Source: Escherichia coli (lineage in GTDB: Bacteria > Pseudomonadota > Gammaproteobacteria > Enterobacterales > Enterobacteriaceae). From it: a DNA stretch of 64,000 nucleotides. The stretch's first letter is position 1; each line of letters begins with the position of its first letter. The notes beneath the pieces are model-generated. The model was not told the DNA's origin and did no database searches. It worked only from the letters and a program-made list of their open reading frames with translations. Location of the stretch: NCBI RefSeq assembly GCF_003991155.1, contig NZ_CP031293.1; one strand, 5' to 3'. The position numbers and the translations under genes are program-made. This document shows, in pieces, positions 13,159 through 62,645 of this stretch.

Positions 13159-13904
13159 TGGCGGAACTCAGCGATCAGGAGATGCTGCGCTACAACCGGC
13201 AAATCATTCTGCGCGGTTTTGATTTTGACGGTCAGGAGGCGCTAAAAGATTCTCGTGTGCTGATCGTCGGCCTCGGTGGACTCGGCTGTGCAGCTTCGCA
13301 GTATCTGGCAAGCGCCGGTGTCGGCAACCTGACGCTGCTCGACTTCGACACGGTTTCGCTCTCGAATCTGCAACGCCAGACTCTGCACAGCGATGCCACG
13401 GTCGGGCAACCGAAGGTGGAATCCGCCCGTGACGCCCTGACGCGGATCAACCCACATATCGCGATTACGCCAGTCAATGCGCTGCTTGATGACGCTGAAC
13501 TTGCTGCGATGATTGCAAAACACGATCTGGTGCTCGACTGTACGGATAACGTTGCAGTACGTAATCAACTGAACGCAGGCTGTTTTGCCGCGAAGGTGCC
13601 GCTGGTTTCCGGCGCGGCAATTCGTATGGAAGGGCAAATCACGGTCTTCACTTATCAGGACGGCGAACCGTGCTATCGCTGCCTTAGCCGTTTGTTTGGC
13701 GAGAACGCGTTAACCTGCGTAGAAGCAGGCGTGATGGCACCGTTGATCGGCGTAATTGGTTCGTTGCAGGCAATGGAAGCGATCAAACTGCTGGCAGGTT
13801 ATGGCAAACCGGCCAGCGGAAAAATCGTGATGTACGATGCGATGACCTGTCAGTTTCGCGAAATGAAACTGATGCGTAATCCGGGGTGTGAGGTGTGCGG
13901 GTAG
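13158..13904 (+). CDS. moeB: Molybdopterin-synthase adenylyltransferase MoeB
   Basis: 248-aa ORF, ThiF/MoeB fold with GLGGLG motif; start overlaps the moeA stop. Confidence 0.92.
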   Translation: MAELSDQEMLRYNRQIILRGFDFDGQEALKDSRVLIVGLGGLGCAASQYLASAGVGNLTLLDFDTVSLSNLQRQTLHSDATVGQPKVESARDALTRINPHIAITPVNALLDDAELAAMIAKHDLVLDCTDNVAVRNQLNAGCFAAKVPLVSGAAIRMEGQITVFTYQDGEPCYRCLSRLFGENALTCVEAGVMAPLIGVIGSLQAMEAIKLLAGYGKPASGKIVMYDAMTCQFREMKLMRNPGCEVCG

Positions 13905-13982
13905 TAACTGCCACCTCCAGGCCAGATAAGACGCGACACTCCGCCACGTCATCAGCAATTTATGAGGATGCAGAACGTCCGG

Positions 13983-14645
13983 TTAAATCGACGTTCTGCC
14001 AAACGCTCCCTGCCAGTCCTGCTCAAACTTCGCCACAGCGGCATCAACCGCCGGATAGCTAATCATCTGTTGTGCCACATCCAGTGGCAGAGTAATTGAT
14101 TCACATCCTGCCAGTAAGCAGTCCAGCGCCTGACGCGGGGTTTTGAAACTCGCGGCTAACACTTTCGCCTGCGGCGCATGCATTTTCAATAACTGGTGTA
14201 AGTCGGTCACAGTCTGAATACCGCTACCGCCCTGAGCATCAATACGATTAACGTAAGGCGCAACATATTCCGCACCTGCCAGCGCCGACAGTAGCCCTTG
14301 TGCTGCGCCATATACCGCGGTTCCCAGCGTCGGAATCCCTTCCGCTTTTAACATCTTAATCGCTGCCAGCCCCTCGGCGGTCACCGGAACTTTCACCACG
14401 ATATCCGCAATAATAGAACGCAGCTTAAGCGCGTCATTCACCATCCCTTCGGCAGTGGTAGCCATTACCTGGGCAAACAGACGCCCCTGACCGCCCATCG
14501 CCTCGTGAAGTTGCGGAAGCACAACCTCCAGCGGTTTTTTACCCGCGGCGATAATGCTTGGGTTAGTGGTCACACCCGCCAGCGGAAAAATACGTGACAG
14601 CGCCTTCACCGCAACAACGTCTGAAGTATCCAGATACAGTTCCAT
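13983..14645 (-). CDS. fsaA: Fructose-6-phosphate aldolase 1 (start at [10 protein letters not shown], 220 aa)
   Basis: Transaldolase-like sequence; the internal ATG has a gaggatgg SD, so the longer ORF (to 14717) is rejected. Confidence 0.88.
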
Positions 14646-20724: not shown

Positions 20725-21945
<1,221 letters not shown>

Positions 21946-33850: not shown

Positions 33851-33934
33851 CACACCAGATTCCTCTCATTTAAAATCGCTCCTCCCCCAGCATCTATACT
33901 TATCTTTTTGCTCTGTTTTCTCACTGGAGGAGTC

Positions 33935-36160
33935 ATGCGGTGGATCCTGTTCATCCTCTTCTGCCTGCTGGGCGCACCTGCCCACGCGGTATCCATACCC
34001 GGCGTTACAACCACAACGACAACGGACTCAACGACTGAACCGGCCCCGGAACCGGATATCGAACAAAAAAAAGCGGCCTATGGCGCACTGGCGGATGTGC
34101 TGGATAATGACACCTCGCGTAAAGAGTTGATCGACCAGTTGCGCACCGTCGCCGCGACGCCCCCGGCAGAACCCGTACCGAAGATCGTGCCGCCGACGCT
34201 GGTTGAAGAGCAAACCGTGCTGCAAAAGGTCACCGAAGTCAGCCGCCATTATGGTGAAGCCCTTTCCGCCCGCTTCGGGCAACTTTATCGCAATATCACC
34301 GGCTCCCCGCATAAGCCGTTTAATCCACAAACCTTCAGCAATGCGTTGACCCATTTTTCAATGTTAGCGGTATTAGTGTTTGGTTTTTACTGGCTGATTC
34401 GCCTGTGCGCACTTCCGCTGTATCGCAAAATGGGCCAGTGGGCGCGGCAAAAAAATCGTGAGCGCAATAACTGGTTGCAGCTTCCGGCGATGATTATCGG
34501 GGCGTTTATTATCGACCTTCTGTTACTGGCACTGACATTATTTGTCGGTCAGGTTTTAAGCGACAACCTGAATGCGGGCAGTCGCACCATCGCTTTCCAA
34601 CAAAGTTTGTTTCTCAACGCCTTTGCCCTGATTGAATTTTTCAAAGCCGTACTACGCCTGATTTTTTGCCCAAACGTGGCGGAACTGCGCCCGTTCACGA
34701 TTCATGACGAGACCGCCCGTTACTGGAGTCGTCGCCTGAGCTGGTTAAGCAGCCTGATTGGCTATGGTCTGATTGTGGCTGTGCCGATTATCTCTAATCA
34801 GGTGAATGTACAGATAGGTGCGCTGGCGAACGTCATCATTATGCTGTGCATGACGGTCTGGGCGCTGTACCTGATCTTTCGTAATAAAAAAGAGATTACC
34901 CAGCATTTGCTCAACTTCGCGGAGCATTCGCTGGCCTTTTTCAGCCTGTTTATCCGCGCCTTTGCGCTGGTGTGGCACTGGCTGGCAAGCGCCTATTTTA
35001 TCGTGCTGTTTTTCTTTTCGTTGTTCGATCCGGGCAACAGCCTGAAATTTATGATGGGTGCAACGGTGCGCAGCCTGGCGATTATTGGTATCGCAGCATT
35101 TGTTTCCGGTATGTTTTCCCGCTGGCTGGCGAAAACCATCACCCTCTCGCCACATACTCAGCGTAACTATCCCGAGCTGCAAAAACGGCTGAATGGATGG
35201 CTTTCGGCGGCACTGAAAACAGCGCGTATTCTGACAGTCTGCGTGGCGGTAATGCTGCTGTTGAGCGCATGGGGATTGTTCGATTTCTGGAACTGGCTGC
35301 AAAACGGCGCGGGGCAGAAAACCGTAGATATCCTGATCCGTATCGCACTCATTCTTTTCTTCTCGGCGGTTGGCTGGACAGTGCTCGCCAGTTTGATCGA
35401 AAACCGGCTGGCTTCGGATATTCATGGCCGCCCGCTACCCAGCGCCCGTACGCGTACCCTGCTGACGCTGTTTCGTAACGCGCTGGCGGTGATTATCAGT
35501 ACCATCACCATCATGATTGTGTTGTCGGAAATCGGCGTTAATATCGCGCCATTGCTGGCAGGTGCCGGGGCATTAGGTCTGGCTATCTCGTTTGGTTCGC
35601 AAACGCTGGTGAAAGATATTATCACCGGGGTATTTATTCAGTTTGAAAACGGCATGAACACTGGAGATTTGGTGACTATCGGGCCGTTGACCGGCACTGT
35701 GGAACGGATGTCGATTCGCTCCGTGGGCGTGCGTCAGGATACCGGGGCGTATCACATCATTCCGTGGTCTTCGATAACTACCTTTGCTAACTTCGTCCGC
35801 GGCATTGGTTCGGTGGTGGCAAATTACGATGTTGATCGCCATGAAGATGCTGATAAAGCCAATCAGGCACTGAAAGATGCGGTAGCGGAATTAATGGAAA
35901 ACGAAGAAATTCGCGGGCTGATTATTGGTGAACCGAATTTTGCCGGGATTGTCGGCTTAAGCAATACCGCGTTTACACTGCGTGTTTCGTTCACCACGCT
36001 GCCACTCAAACAGTGGACGGTCCGCTTTGCCCTCGACAGCCAGGTGAAAAAACATTTCGACCTGGCGGGCGTTCGCGCGCCAGTGCAGACTTATCAGGTG
36101 CTGCCTGCTCCGGGCGCGACCCCGGCTGAACCGTTGCCGCCGGGGGAACCAACGCTTTAA
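33935..36160 (+). CDS. ybiO: Mechanosensitive channel YbiO (MscS family), start at MRWILFIL
   Basis: About 741 aa with signal-like N-terminus, multiple TM helices and an MscS-like C-terminal domain. Confidence 0.88.
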
Positions 36161-37083
36161 CGCTGGCGATTGACAAAACGGCGGCGCTGCTCGTCGTTCA
36201 TAAAGGTCCAGGCTATAAAGCGGCTCTGCTTTTGCCCCTGGGCCATCTCTTTTTTGACCACTTTCACCGCGCCCACGTCCGTCAGAGCACGATACAACGG
36301 CGGTAAGTTTTCGCCACGAGATACCAGCGAGGTAAACCACATCACCTGCTTCGCGAAGCCTTTGCTCTCTTCAATCATCTTTTTAATAAAAGCGACTTCA
36401 CCGCCTTCACACCACAACTCCTGTTGCTGACCACCAAAATTCAGTGCATCGTCTTTGTTTAGCCCCAGGTTACGGCGTTTACGTTCACTACCTGCCCGTG
36501 CCGCAGCGGCGGAATCGTGGAATGGCGGGTTACACAAGGTCGCGTCGTATTGCTCGTTTTTATGGATGATGCCGTTAAAAATCGCCCCACTCTCTTTTTG
36601 CCGACGCAGACGAATGGCGCGGTTAAGCCCCGGATTAGCACTGATGATCGCCTGCGCACTGCTTAACGCCTGGCTGCTGGTTTCACTACCAGTAAAACGC
36701 CAGCCATATTCATGTACGCCAATCAGCGGATAAATACAGTTCGCACCAACGCCGATATCCAGAATGCTGGCATTAGCTGGAATTGATCCTGTTGCTTCTG
36801 CCAGTAAATCGGCAAGGTGATGAATATAATCCGCCCGGCCCGGTACTGGTGGGCAGAGAAAACCGTCGGGGATATCCCAGTTCGCTACGGCGTAAAAATG
36901 GGCCAGCAACGCCTTATTGAGCGCCTTCACCGCCAGCGGATTGGCAAAGTCTACGCTTTGCTCCCCGGCGGGTGTAAGCGTGAGGAATTGCCTGAGTTCA
37001 GGATTGACCTGACAAAGTGTGGCGAGATCGTAGCTGCTGTGATGACGGTTGCGCGGATGCAACCCCGGTTTCTGGGCGGACAT
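36157..37083 (-). CDS. rlmF: 23S rRNA m6A1618 methyltransferase RlmF (start at [12 protein letters not shown])
   Basis: SAM-dependent methyltransferase; its 3' end overlaps the convergent ybiO stop by 4 nt. Confidence 0.88.
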
Positions 37084-37358
37084 AGCATTCTCCTTTAAGC
37101 AGCGGCGTAAGATACCCGCATAACGCGACAGGGTAAATATCTGGCTGCGTTTATCATTTCTAAAAACCTTCACATGGCTATGGTTTATGGCAATTCACCA
37201 TAAAAATCATCATCATGCATGTCATTGATTTGTCTTATTTTGTAAAAATATATCGTTCAAAAAATAAGCGCATCTCTGTCAATTTTTTGCGTCATTTTCA
37301 TCGCCCAGGCGACCTACACTTATCAGGCACTACCCGTTGTATTTATGAGGATGTCATT

Positions 37359-46426: not shown

Positions 46427-46708
46427 TTATTGCGCTGGTGGCCATTGCAGGGCGGTATGTAAAACACGCAGTACCGAGAGCGTATCGCCCTCCACTTGGT
46501 AGATCAGCACATAATGCGGCCTGACAACGGCTTCATGTGTACCAGCGACTCGTCCGGCCCGGTACATCTCCGGGCGTTCACAGGCCTGTTCCGCAATGGC
46601 TTCAAATTGATTATCAAGGGCTATTGCCGCTAGCGGATTATCTTTACTGATGTATTCCATGATTTGCTCCCTGTCAGACAGGGACATTGGCTTCCATTCC
46701 AGACGCAT
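46427..46708 (-). CDS. ParE/RelE-superfamily toxin, 93 aa
   Basis: Translation MRLEWKPMSLSDREQIMEYISKDNPLAA...PEMYRAGRVAGTHEAVVRPHYVLIYQVEGDTLSVLRVLH has the ParE-like layout; the start overlaps the upstream gene's stop (TAATG). Confidence 0.75.
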   Translation of the reverse strand: MRLEWKPMSLSDREQIMEYISKDNPLAAIALDNQFEAIAEQACERPEMYRAGRVAGTHEAVVRPHYVLIYQVEGDTLSVLRVLHTALQWPPAQ

Positions 46709-47148
46709 TAATCCCCCTTCAGCAAGGCTTTTTTACGGGCAGCAAATAGACTTTTGGCCTCTTCATGAGAGAGCGCCGGGCGTGGATCGTCAATGGCGGC
46801 CTGTACCTGTTCACGAAACCAGGCGTCATACGCGGCAGCTTCATGAGCTCGTTTTAATGCCTCTGCCCTGTCTGGTCGGGTCGTTTTCTTCTGACCGTCC
46901 GGGTCGTAATGAGAGGCGTCGACTTCAAACCGGGCAATACCAACATCTTTCAGGTAGTTGACAACCGTTTCCAGCCGTTTAAACAAGCGAATTTGCCGAC
47001 TGCGTTGTGCTGCAAGAGGCCGTTCAGTGTGGCCGTATTTCACGGTCAACGACCAGCCTCCCTGGGTGCCAATAACGTGTGCTGCATCCACTACGCCAGA
47101 TTCAACCAGTTTATGTAAGGTTGAGTGATCGATCGTTTCTGGTGCCAT
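46708..47148 (-). CDS. Putative cognate antitoxin / DNA-binding partner of the ParE-like toxin, atypical 146 aa; family unresolved
   Basis: Translationally coupled directly upstream of the toxin. The C-terminal segment (AAYDAWFREQVQAAIDDPRPALSHEEAKSLFAARKKAL) looks like a toxin-neutralising tail; the N-terminal ~90 aa do not show an obvious RHH, AbrB or HTH signature to me. Confidence 0.6.
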   Translation of the reverse strand: MAPETIDHSTLHKLVESGVVDAAHVIGTQGGWSLTVKYGHTERPLAAQRSRQIRLFKRLETVVNYLKDVGIARFEVDASHYDPDGQKKTTRPDRAEALKRAHEAAAYDAWFREQVQAAIDDPRPALSHEEAKSLFAARKKALLKGD

Positions 47149-53432: not shown

Positions 53433-54539
53433 ATGTTTCATCGCTTATGGACGTTAATCCGCAAAGAGTTGCAGTCGCTGCTGCGCGAACCGCAAACCCG
53501 CGCAATTCTGATTTTACCCGTGCTGATTCAGGTGATCCTGTTCCCGTTCGCCGCCACGCTGGAAGTGACCAACGCCACCATCGCCATCTACGATGAAGAT
53601 AACGGCGAGCATTCGGTGGAACTTACTCAACGTTTTGCCCGCGCCAGCGCCTTTACCCATGTGCTGCTGCTGAAAAGCCCGCAGGAGATCCGCCCAACCA
53701 TCGACACACAAAAGGCATTACTCCTGGTGCGTTTCCCGGCTGACTTCTCGCGCAAACTGGATACCTTCCAGACCGCGCCGTTGCAGTTGATCCTCGACGG
53801 GCGCAACTCCAACAGTGCGCAAATTGCCGCCAACTACCTGCAACAGATCGTCAAAAATTATCAGCAGGAGCTGCTGGAAGGAAAACCGAAACCCAACAAC
53901 AGCGAGCTGGTGGTACGCAACTGGTATAACCCGAATCTCGACTACAAATGGTTTGTGGTGCCGTCGCTGATCGCCATGATCACCACTATCGGCGTAATGA
54001 TCGTCACTTCACTTTCCGTCGCCCGCGAACGTGAACAAGGTACGCTCGATCAGTTACTGGTTTCGCCGCTCACCACCTGGCAGATATTCATCGGCAAGGC
54101 CGTACCGGCATTAATTGTCGCCACCTTCCAGGCCACCATTGTGCTGGCGATTGGTATCTGGGCGTATCAAATCCCCTTCGCCGGATCGCTGGCGCTGTTC
54201 TACTTTACGATGGTGATTTACGGTTTATCGCTGGTAGGCTTCGGTCTGTTGATTTCATCACTCTGTTCAACACAACAGCAGGCGTTTATCGGCGTGTTTG
54301 TCTTTATGATGCCCGCCATTCTCCTTTCCGGTTACGTTTCGCCGGTGGAAAACATGCCAGTGTGGCTGCAAAATCTGACGTGGATTAACCCTATTCGCCA
54401 CTTTACGGACATTACCAAGCAGATTTATTTGAAGGATGCGAGTCTGGATATTGTGTGGAATAGTTTGTGGCCGCTACTGGTGATAACGGCCACGACAGGG
54501 TCAGCGGCGTACGCGATGTTTAGACGTAAGGTGATGTAA
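53433..54539 (+). CDS. ybhR: ABC-2 type transporter permease YbhR
   Basis: 368-aa membrane protein, paralogous to YbhS. Confidence 0.88.
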
Positions 54540-54911
54540 CTTCTTATCTTTCGCCAGCAAAGACACCACCGCCGGGCCGGCAAGGATTGCCAGCCCTGCA
54601 ATTGCCAGCAAAAAGTTGTTTTCCAGTACGCGGGACAACAGCCACAGCACAATCAGCGCTGCGCCAAAATACCAGGTCGTGGTCAGCTCTTCCAGCACGT
54701 CTGCCACCTCACGCCAGCGTTGCTCGGGGTGGCGCTGAAACACCAGCATCATCACTACCGTGACACAATACAGTGCGCATAATCCCACGCCGACGTGAAC
54801 CAGAGTCTTACTCATCCAGCCCACCACCAGCAGCGCCACTACCAGTAAATGCAACATACTCTGCCAGCAACTTAGGCCAGTTGCGACACGAACACGTTGT
54901 TGCCACTTCAT
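54501..54911 (-). CDS. ybhQ: Inner membrane protein YbhQ
   Basis: 136-aa hydrophobic ORF; its 3' end overlaps the convergent ybhR 3' end by 39 nt. Confidence 0.8.
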
Positions 54912-61510: not shown

Positions 61511-62500
61511 TTAGCCGCCAATGTACGATAAGTTTTGCGTAATACCGGTGTTGTTTTGATGCAGGAAATGGGTCTGTTTCTTCTCCCGCAGCGCCGCTGA
61601 AATACGCGCTTCCAGCGCCTGTTGCTGGGTATCGTCTTCCAGCAGATCGCGCAGGTTAACGCCGCCTTCACCAAACAGGCAGAGATGGAGTTTACCAATG
61701 GAGGAAACGCGCAGGCGGTTGCAAGTGGCGCAGAAGTCTTTTTCATACGGCATGATAAGGCCAATCTCTCCGGCGTAATCCGGATGACAAAAGACTTGCG
61801 CGGGACCGTCGCTGCGTTGACGTAATTGGTGGATCCAGCCGCGACGCAGTAACTCGTCACGCAGAACCTGACCAGAGATGTGATGCTTACGGAAGAGCTC
61901 GCTGCCCTCGCCCGTCTCCATCAGTTCGATGAAACGCAGCTGGATGGGACGATGCTGGATCCAGTTCAGAAAGGTGTCGAGCTGATGATGATTAACATCA
62001 CGCATCAGCACGGTATTGACTTTGACCTTCTCAAAACCGGCCTCAAATGCAGCATCGATTCCTGCCATGACCTGGTTGAATTTATCCTGCCCGGTAATGG
62101 CATGAAACTGGCGGGCGTCCAGACTATCAACGCTGACGTTGATGCCAGTAAGTCCAGCATCGCGCCAGTTCGCCACATCGCGTTCCAGACGGTAACCATT
62201 GGTGGTGACCGCAATCTGGCGGATAGCGTCGTTTTCTCGCACAGCGGCGATGATATCGGTAAAGTCGCGGCGTAAAGACGGCTCACCGCCCGTCAGACGG
62301 ACTTTTTCGGTGCCCAGACTGGCGAAGGCGCGCGTAACCCGGCGAATTTCATCGACGGTAAGAAAGCCTTTATTGGTGACGCCGCTCGGTTTGTAGCCAT
62401 CCGGCAGGCAGTAGGTGCAACGAAAGTTACACACATCGGTAATCGACAGGCGCAAGTAGTAAAACTTACGCGCAAATGCATCAGTCAGTTGTGAAGCCAT
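61511..62500 (-). CDS. moaA: GTP 3',8-cyclase MoaA (radical SAM), start at MASQLTDAF
   Basis: CNFRCTYC cluster motif; 329 aa. Confidence 0.93.
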
Positions 62501-62504
62501 GTAC

Positions 62505-62645
62505 ACCTTTCCAGATACGGGAGGCGAAGTCATTTCTTCCTTCGCCCTGGTGGCAATCTTTACGAGCATTGTCACGGCCAAAGCACCGTATCAGTTGACC
62601 CAGGTGCAGAGGCTAGAGTGTTTAGTGGTTAAGCCGATACTAGCG
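62505..62645 (-). ncRNA. Molybdenum cofactor (Moco) riboswitch candidate in the moaA 5' leader; ends approximate
   Basis: Established knowledge that the E. coli moaABCDE leader carries the Moco RNA motif. The leader here is about 140 nt, structured and GC-rich, and ends in a GCCUCCC segment near the RBS. Not verified with a covariance model. Confidence 0.55.

Follow-up and report, generated by a model that had tools for sequence, protein, structure and literature searches.

Convergent overlapping genes, in which two real coding sequences (CDSs) on opposite strands have common 3' ends, are a well-described arrangement (Rogozin et al. 2002; Palleja et al. 2008, PMC2478687; Huvet & Stumpf 2014, PMC4161906). 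In Escherichia coli 75 convergent overlapping pairs have been counted, and the class accounts for about 7% of well-characterised overlaps (PMC2478687, PMC4161906); most long convergent overlaps are conserved in very close species only (Palleja et al. 2008, PMC2478687). We analysed a stretch of 64,000 nucleotides from E. coli (contig NZ_CP031293.1; hereafter the window) that holds two pairs of this kind, ybhR/ybhQ and ybiO/rlmF. Each has what defines the class, namely real CDSs, common 3' ends that include the stops and conservation in orthologs, the last for ybiO/rlmF within Escherichia, Salmonella and Citrobacter only. At 39 nt, the ybhR/ybhQ overlap is longer than typical convergent overlaps and, unlike the long overlaps of Palleja et al., it is kept in over 15 genera, where constraint from both reading frames can be measured.

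Several described systems offer comparisons for the transcripts of such pairs. Excludons (Sesto et al. 2013; PMC12288877) likewise consist of adjacent opposite-strand genes with overlapping transcripts, and their function is mutually exclusive expression through interference or RNase III, whereas the overlap here follows automatically from that of the CDSs. Dar & Sorek (2018, PMC6061677) described Rho-dependent transcripts whose 3' ends closely follow a stable stem-loop that lacks a U-tract, rut sites coming directly after. The ybhQ end resembles this class in its U-tract-less stem-loop, a 3' end a few nucleotides downstream, a bicyclomycin-sensitive region downstream and perhaps, judging by the first 50 nt, C-rich and G-poor RNA directly after the stem-loop; it differs in that the stem-loop lies in the CDS of the convergent gene, where it is kept by synonymous rare codons, and not in a spacer. 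Bidirectional terminators (Ju et al. 2019; Wang et al. 2022, doi 10.1101/2022.10.23.513370) likewise involve a convergent pair and a shared palindromic hairpin without a U-tract, but they are described as Rho-independent and sit between genes, whereas at ybhR/ybhQ Rho sensitivity is seen on both strands and the hairpin precedes the ybhR stop.

Most of this is known: public annotation and papers already contain the two pairs, their overlapping transcripts and the mapped end of ybhQ mRNA. The modest addition of the present analysis is the conservation depth, the two-frame constraint and a ybhQ hairpin written in ybhR codons. We favour a structural reading, to which we assign a probability of roughly 0.7: the overlap is frozen because the ends of both proteins are under selection, and Rho together with a protective hairpin sets the ybhQ 3' end.

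The last gene of cecR-ybhGFSR is ybhR, which ends in TAA at 54537-54539; ybhQ ends in TGA, the complement of 54501-54503. Their codons lie in register, so that third positions in either gene face first positions in its partner. The sequence-only reading had described a 39-nt tail-to-tail overlap of ybhR with ybhQ and a 4-nt overlap of ybiO with rlmF, and both were recovered (Table 1), the former from open reading frames (ORFs), the PGAP annotation and the MG1655 record, the latter from ORFs and annotation. All four genes have identical ends in MG1655 and in the PGAP annotation of strain 2016C-3878, with which the window has 99.9% identity, and the region was found in 5423 of 5426 complete genomes. 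The longest mechanical ORFs start at 33908 (TTG) for ybiO and at 37173 (GTG) for rlmF, which lengthens the annotated genes by 27 and 90 nt at their 5' ends, and some database entries use longer RlmF forms (335 and 338 aa).

Table 1. Features of the two convergent overlaps and their transcripts, in window coordinates.
Feature	Position	Strand	Evidence and description
ybhR CDS	53433..54539	+	ORF, Pfam PF12698 E=3.8e-51, PGAP; ABC-2 permease
ybhQ CDS	54501..54911	-	ORF, Pfam PF11076 E=2.7e-72; YbhQ-family inner-membrane protein, 136 aa
39-nt dual-coding overlap	54501..54539	both	YbhR S357-M368 + stop opposite YbhQ L125-R136 + stop
11-bp hairpin GUGGCCGUUAU-CACCA-GUAGCGGCCAC	54467..54493	-	RNA folding; ybhQ 3' untranslated RNA, ybhR codons L344-T354
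ybhQ mRNA primary Term-seq 3' end	54461 (MG1655 825080)	-	Adams et al. 2021 supp. file 1 (PMC7815308), two condition sheets
Rho termination peak, ybhQ-sense RNA	54359 (MG1655 825182)	-	Adams et al. 2021 supp. file 2, score 3.95, p=5e-7
Rho termination peak, ybhR-sense RNA	54612 (MG1655 824929)	+	Adams et al. 2021 supp. file 2, score 3.85, p=2.2e-7
ybiO CDS	33935..36160 (annotated start)	+	ORF, Pfam, annotation; MscS-family mechanosensitive channel
rlmF CDS	36157..37083 (annotated start)	-	ORF, Pfam, annotation; 23S rRNA m6A1618 methyltransferase
4-nt overlap TTAA	36157..36160	both	ybiO and rlmF TAA stops with common bases
Candidate ybiO intrinsic terminator inside rlmF	36205..36255	+	Stem 36205-36244 (dG -20.8), AUCUC, UUUUUU 36250-36255

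Because the reading frame fixes the stop codons, an overlap could be removed only if a gene were false. That one gene per pair might be unreal or mis-framed, making the overlap spurious, is suggested by the frequency of 3' misannotation in long convergent overlaps (124 of 178 above 60 bp; Palleja et al. 2008, PMC2478687) and by ybhQ being small and uncharacterised. Against such an annotation artefact, the overlap of 39 nt is shorter than the 60 bp above which artefacts prevail, and all four genes have strong Pfam matches (ABC2_membrane_3 in YbhR; a PF11076 match spanning residues 1-132 of 136 in YbhQ; MscS domains in YbiO; Methyltransf_10 in RlmF, E=2.3e-153). The partner genes have hundreds to thousands of homologs, with a codon-position conservation pattern that fits coding. 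YbhQ itself has 814 homologs, mostly of 136 aa, and both its length and its C-terminal KHR.R motif are kept across genera. Its stop is selected: the ybhR Ser codon at this point could take six forms, yet 66 of 68 sequences have TCA. The artefact explanation is already refuted by these conservation data and retains next to no probability. A shorter ybhQ with a misassigned stop, the case that the sequence-only reading had named as removing the overlap, is excluded as well: no earlier in-frame stop exists and the TGA is under selection.

Phylogenetic depth was assessed in ybhQ loci from one genome per species (80 Enterobacteriaceae loci), with both stops located in each. The 39-nt overlap, of the same length and in the same register, was present in 64 of these across more than 15 genera, including Escherichia, Salmonella, Citrobacter, Leclercia, Kluyvera, Yokenella, Phytobacter, Atlantibacter, Siccibacter, Superficieibacter, Pseudocitrobacter and some Kosakonia; in K. 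cowanii the overlap is 48 nt. Four of the 80 loci (L021, L033, L043 and L080) have the overlap DNA unchanged but ybhR frameshifted, and in E. coli UTAK-1 the genes ybhF, ybhS and ybhR are pseudogenes beside an intact ybhQ; the efflux operon could be truly decaying in these cases, or the assemblies could contain indel errors. In 11 of the 80 loci (Raoultella, a Kosakonia subgroup, P. gergoviae and other isolates) the genes are separated by a real gap, of 2-206 nt, and about 11 lineages are without the overlap yet have both genes.

In these gap lineages the YbhQ tail is different and longer, the spacer contains hairpin or repeat DNA, and the former tail-coding sequence remains opposite the end of ybhR. 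The longest spacers, both in Raoultella (L063:2936-3121 and L069:2936-3147, with ybhQ on the + strand), carry one or two ERIC-like copies with cores GTGACNGGGGTGAG and GAATCCCCNGGAGC, which we take to be ERIC-type core motifs from their likeness to the ERIC primers. The new C-terminus of Raoultella YbhQ (...NP.KHR) and its stop codon come from this repeat-associated DNA, and the Kosakonia subgroup has a YbhQ tail similar to that of Raoultella. Since the old tail-coding sequence still lies opposite the ybhR end, the 39-nt overlap is most simply interpreted as ancestral, and would have been split later by insertion.

The unchanged recurrence of the overlap is more than chance, given that the four-fold sites of ybhR are near saturation (median entropy 1.2 bits). 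Directly upstream of the overlap, the ybhR third positions 54494, 54497 and 54500 reach 1.65, 1.48 and 1.87 bits among the 64 species. Opposite the YbhQ stop and last codons, position 54503 is A and 54506 is G in all 64, and G is found at 54509 in 59 and at 54515 in 58. Third-position constraint is thus a property of the half nearest the ybhQ stop (54501-54521); the other half (54522-54539) varies freely, at 1.4-1.8 bits, and there YbhQ residues 125-130 track the synonymous changes of ybhR. A change of ybhR TTT to TTC turns YbhQ K131 into E. Entropy of 0.3 bits or less was seen at just 6 of 143 conserved ybhR four-fold sites, among them 54473 and 54503, the latter being the complement of a base within the ybhQ TGA. 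The sequence-only reading had suggested checking that the annotated stops are conserved; that of ybhQ is conserved and under selection (54503 is invariant, with low four-fold entropy). Purifying selection acts on the YbhR C-terminus (AY.MFRR) and on the basic end of YbhQ (KHR[V/I]R[R/H] plus stop), and such constraint on the two termini would suffice by itself to hold the overlap fixed.

All transcript data considered here come from MG1655 rather than from the window strain; the local sequence is identical, coordinates were converted, and the sequence flanking MG1655 825080 matches the window exactly. Adams et al. 2021 (PMC7815308) classed the 825080 (+) end as primary for ybhQ and antisense to ybhR. 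The distance from the ybhQ stop (825040) is 40 nt, which places the end 79 nt inside ybhR and 6 nt beyond the base of the hairpin. Bicyclomycin DirectRNA-seq in the same study (PMC7815308) defined Rho regions on both strands, whose peak positions are coarse because the scores were computed from 800-nt windows; the ybhR-sense peak falls 73 nt past the ybhR stop, antisense to ybhQ. Together these data bear out, in MG1655, the earlier claim that each transcript of the ybhR/ybhQ pair extends antisense into its neighbour, and an ExcludonFinder listing from MG1655 RNA-seq extends the antisense overlap to both pairs, ybiO/rlmF included. A separate Term-seq 3' end at window position 54851 (- strand; MG1655 824690), 60 nt inside the ybhQ ORF, has an intrinsic-terminator score of 4.9 and a Rho score of 0.6 (Adams et al. 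2021) and may mark premature termination or attenuation of ybhQ.

Our consensus terminator scan detected nothing canonical after the stop of any of the four genes; the terminator and promoter matches that scanning did return all fall within coding sequence ahead of the stops, and we did not consider them further. The sequence-only reading had gone further in stating that the overlaps leave no room for terminators, which is too strong, as 3'-end-forming elements are embedded in the partner's CDS: a conserved hairpin plus Rho for ybhQ, and a plausible stem plus U6 for ybiO.

The ybhQ hairpin begins 8 nt past the stop when ybhQ-sense RNA is folded, with a dG of -17.0 kcal/mol against -11.7 on ybhR-sense RNA. 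It is followed by AAACUAUUCC in place of a U-tract, and so does not have the form of an intrinsic terminator for ybhQ. Pairing is retained in 90.7% of cells, compared with 24-59% in slid controls, and 10 or 11 of the 11 pairs are kept in most genera. When synonymous codons were drawn for the YbhR peptide with ybhR's own codon usage, 7.3 pairs were expected, against an observed mean of 9.9, and the 11/11 pairing of the E. coli type arose in 3 of 5000 resamples. The stem relies on the rare codons CTA (4% of Leu) and ATA (6% of Ile), and the four-fold site 54473 within it has an entropy of 0.10. We relied on explicit pair counts and codon resampling because an RNAalifold consensus of 78 sequences gave a 4-bp core alone. 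A search for short inverted repeats across the window yielded no useful hairpin background, being uninformative here since the E. coli stem depends on G.U pairs.

Other measures of the hairpin are less distinctive. In a sliding window over ybhR, the dip in third-position entropy at the hairpin is moderate (0.59-0.65 against about 1.0), and a comparable dip at 53964-53982 means that the hairpin is no unique outlier by this measure. Raoultella retains the hairpin although its ybhQ stop is 56-206 nt distant, and in Kosakonia the hairpin has decayed with or without the overlap, so it is not strictly tied to the overlap. Pairing favours ybhQ-sense RNA in 43 loci and ybhR-sense RNA in 16, an asymmetry that is weak evidence because one closing U.G pair and related lineages dominate it.

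The palindrome might have nothing to do with 3'-end formation of ybhQ, being instead a by-product of the WPLLVIAAT peptide and codon bias, an element acting in ybhR mRNA or a DNA- or protein-binding site. About 10 bp can form on both strands in most species, the G+C-rich core is built from the common codons CCG, GCG and GCC, true covariation is sparse (5 cells in 2 pairs) and the Raoultella hairpin persists although ybhQ ends far off, all of which would fit such an origin. We nevertheless think it unlikely, as the excess of pairs over resampled codons and the need for rare CTA and ATA argue against a by-product, and the mapped 3' end lies just downstream of the hairpin. The strands also differ: all 16 one-sided changes in pairs 24-42, 25-41 and 27-39 are C-to-U, which keeps U.G on ybhQ-sense RNA and yields A.C on ybhR-sense RNA, and the E. 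coli stem is 5 kcal/mol stabler on the ybhQ side. We regard a ybhQ 3' hairpin embedded in the ybhR CDS under codon constraint as modestly new.

Under the structural reading, YbhR and YbhQ would both be made in full, up to the stops annotated for them, and each mRNA would end inside the other gene because there is no intergenic DNA between them. The ybhQ transcript would run past its stop into antisense ybhR, where Rho most likely terminates it on C-rich, G-poor untranslated RNA; the first 50 nt after the hairpin contain 15 C and 3 G, although the C-minus-G skew over 80 nt is just at the 69th percentile of the window. Exonuclease trimming back to the hairpin, in ybhR codons 344-354, would then give the 3' end 40 nt past the stop. 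This is consistent with the combination seen at ybhQ, a stable stem-loop without a U-tract, a 3' end just downstream and, in the published data at 800-nt resolution, readthrough that rises on Rho inhibition. In the other direction, the ybhR operon transcript probably goes about 70 nt or more into antisense ybhQ and would also be limited by Rho, and translating ribosomes should keep the palindromic hairpin unfolded. We infer the trimming to the hairpin, the masking by ribosomes and the absence of strong regulation as parts of this structural reading.

A collision-type bidirectional terminator offers a Rho-independent account, in which the hairpin would pause polymerases from both sides and head-on and trailing collisions would release them. 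The convergent pair, the palindromic hairpin, the lack of a U-tract and the sharp 3' end are as in that model, yet bicyclomycin-sensitive readthrough occurs on both strands, and the data show neither Rho independence nor a single hairpin with transcript ends from both strands around it. Were polymerases arriving from ybhR to terminate at the hairpin, the ybhR message would be cut 44 nt short of the stop codon, and Adams et al. 2021 (PMC7815308) list no ybhR-sense Term-seq end there. Both genes also appear weakly expressed (about 70-100 reads per 800 nt), a range in which the model predicts poor efficiency. We consider collision-driven release very unlikely at this locus.

A 4-nt overlap in which the two stops share TTAA is the classic minimal convergent case, and ybiO/rlmF has this minimal shared-stop form, which is evolutionarily labile. 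The same overlap occurs in Salmonella and C. koseri and is limited to Escherichia, Salmonella and Citrobacter. In K. quasipneumoniae, ybiO and rlmF abut and the overlap is absent; in Raoultella and Enterobacter they lie 52 and 47 nt apart, respectively, and either spacer has its own hairpin; and in Kluyvera ybiO is absent and a canonical terminator follows rlmF. The candidate ybiO terminator, a stem followed by AUCUCUUUUUUG 45-95 nt past the stop and within rlmF, matches the intrinsic-terminator pattern by sequence, its stem having been missed by the consensus scan. We rejected conservation of this stem and U6 as functional evidence, as it is equal in Kluyvera, which has no ybiO; the stem is conserved because it mirrors a conserved 16-residue motif of RlmF. 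Published 3'-end data were found for neither rlmF nor ybiO, including at the candidate terminator, and the TERMITe supplements make no mention of these genes. Two further structures were noted here: a hairpin CCAGCGUUAAAGCGUUGG at 36149-36166, centred on the shared TTAA stops, and an unusually stable fold of the rlmF-sense RNA downstream (36040-36170, - strand; -63.5 kcal/mol, z=-4.1), which is antisense to the Pro-rich C-terminal tail of ybiO.

Both pairs belong to the published MG1655 excludome: ExcludonFinder (Sanmartin et al. 2025, PMC12288877) placed ybhQ-ybhR and rlmF-ybiO among 165 convergent excludons (its Table 1), each detected in at least half of 58 MG1655 RNA-seq sets. The antisense transcript overlap that excludons require is therefore on record for them (PMC12288877), as is the Term-seq end antisense to ybhR. 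Two genes whose CDSs overlap will trivially be called an excludon whenever both are expressed, and their listing is no evidence of regulation. We regard the antisense RNA overlap as a structural consequence of gene layout, and regulatory interference between the convergent partners, which the sequence-only reading took this layout to allow, as possible.

A selected excludon would go further, in that the overlap would be kept because antisense pairing or polymerase collision gives mutual repression, with RNase III cleaving the duplex, pairing the CecR-controlled ybhGFSR efflux operon with ybhQ and likewise ybiO with rlmF. Beyond the excludome entries, this accords with the higher synteny reported for excludon pairs (PMC12288877), the unusually deep retention of ybhR/ybhQ and transcripts on both strands that reach well past the 39 nt. 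It is nevertheless unlikely in our judgement: the listing follows from CDS overlap, purifying selection on both protein ends suffices to freeze the overlap, and about 11 lineages dropped it and kept both genes. As for the second pair, Klebsiella, Enterobacter and Raoultella do not have the rlmF/ybiO overlap, and Kluyvera lacks ybiO; the literature yielded no anticorrelation, dsRNA, RNase III or phenotype data for either pair. A more specific version, on which the hairpin and the frozen 39-nt overlap would form a selected cis-antisense module across Enterobacteriaceae, with an RNA duplex of at least 79 nt coupling the YbhFSR pump to ybhQ, is quite doubtful. The same low standing applies to its details, in which coupling would act through RNase III cleavage or polymerase interference and the excludon would be embedded in CDS and kept by rare codons.

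Across the window, 2 of 10 convergent junctions overlap, and the other eight have gaps of 13-259 nt. The convergent fsa-moeB junction (about 13904-13983; 78-nt gap) is also on the ExcludonFinder list, so that 3 of the 10 junctions are published excludons. An IS621 (IS110-family) transposase gene at 20745-21725 (- strand) lies between ybiT and a DUF1479 gene, an insertion to which the window owes its widest convergent gap (259 nt). Upstream of moaA is a known and annotated molybdenum cofactor riboswitch (62488-62632, - strand; Rfam RF01055, 103 bits). Two annotated RelE/ParE-type toxin-antitoxin pairs are located beside rimO (861-1566, + strand) and between rhlE and dinG (46427-47148, - strand), and dgcI, encoding a diguanylate cyclase (1636-2953, - strand), has the annotation of a frameshifted pseudogene in 2016C-3878, the nearly identical strain.

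Beyond giving a clean example of a known arrangement, these overlaps have little wider importance. If interference were true, it would link the antibiotic-efflux operon cecR-ybhGFSR to an uncharacterised membrane protein. The ybhQ 3' end indicates that a 3'-end-forming hairpin can be written into a neighbour's CDS by synonymous rare codons, which calls for caution in codon optimisation or recoding of ybhR-like genes and in methods that take synonymous sites as neutral. The ybhR/ybhQ pair serves as an example of a convergent CDS overlap frozen over the long term by selection on both protein ends.
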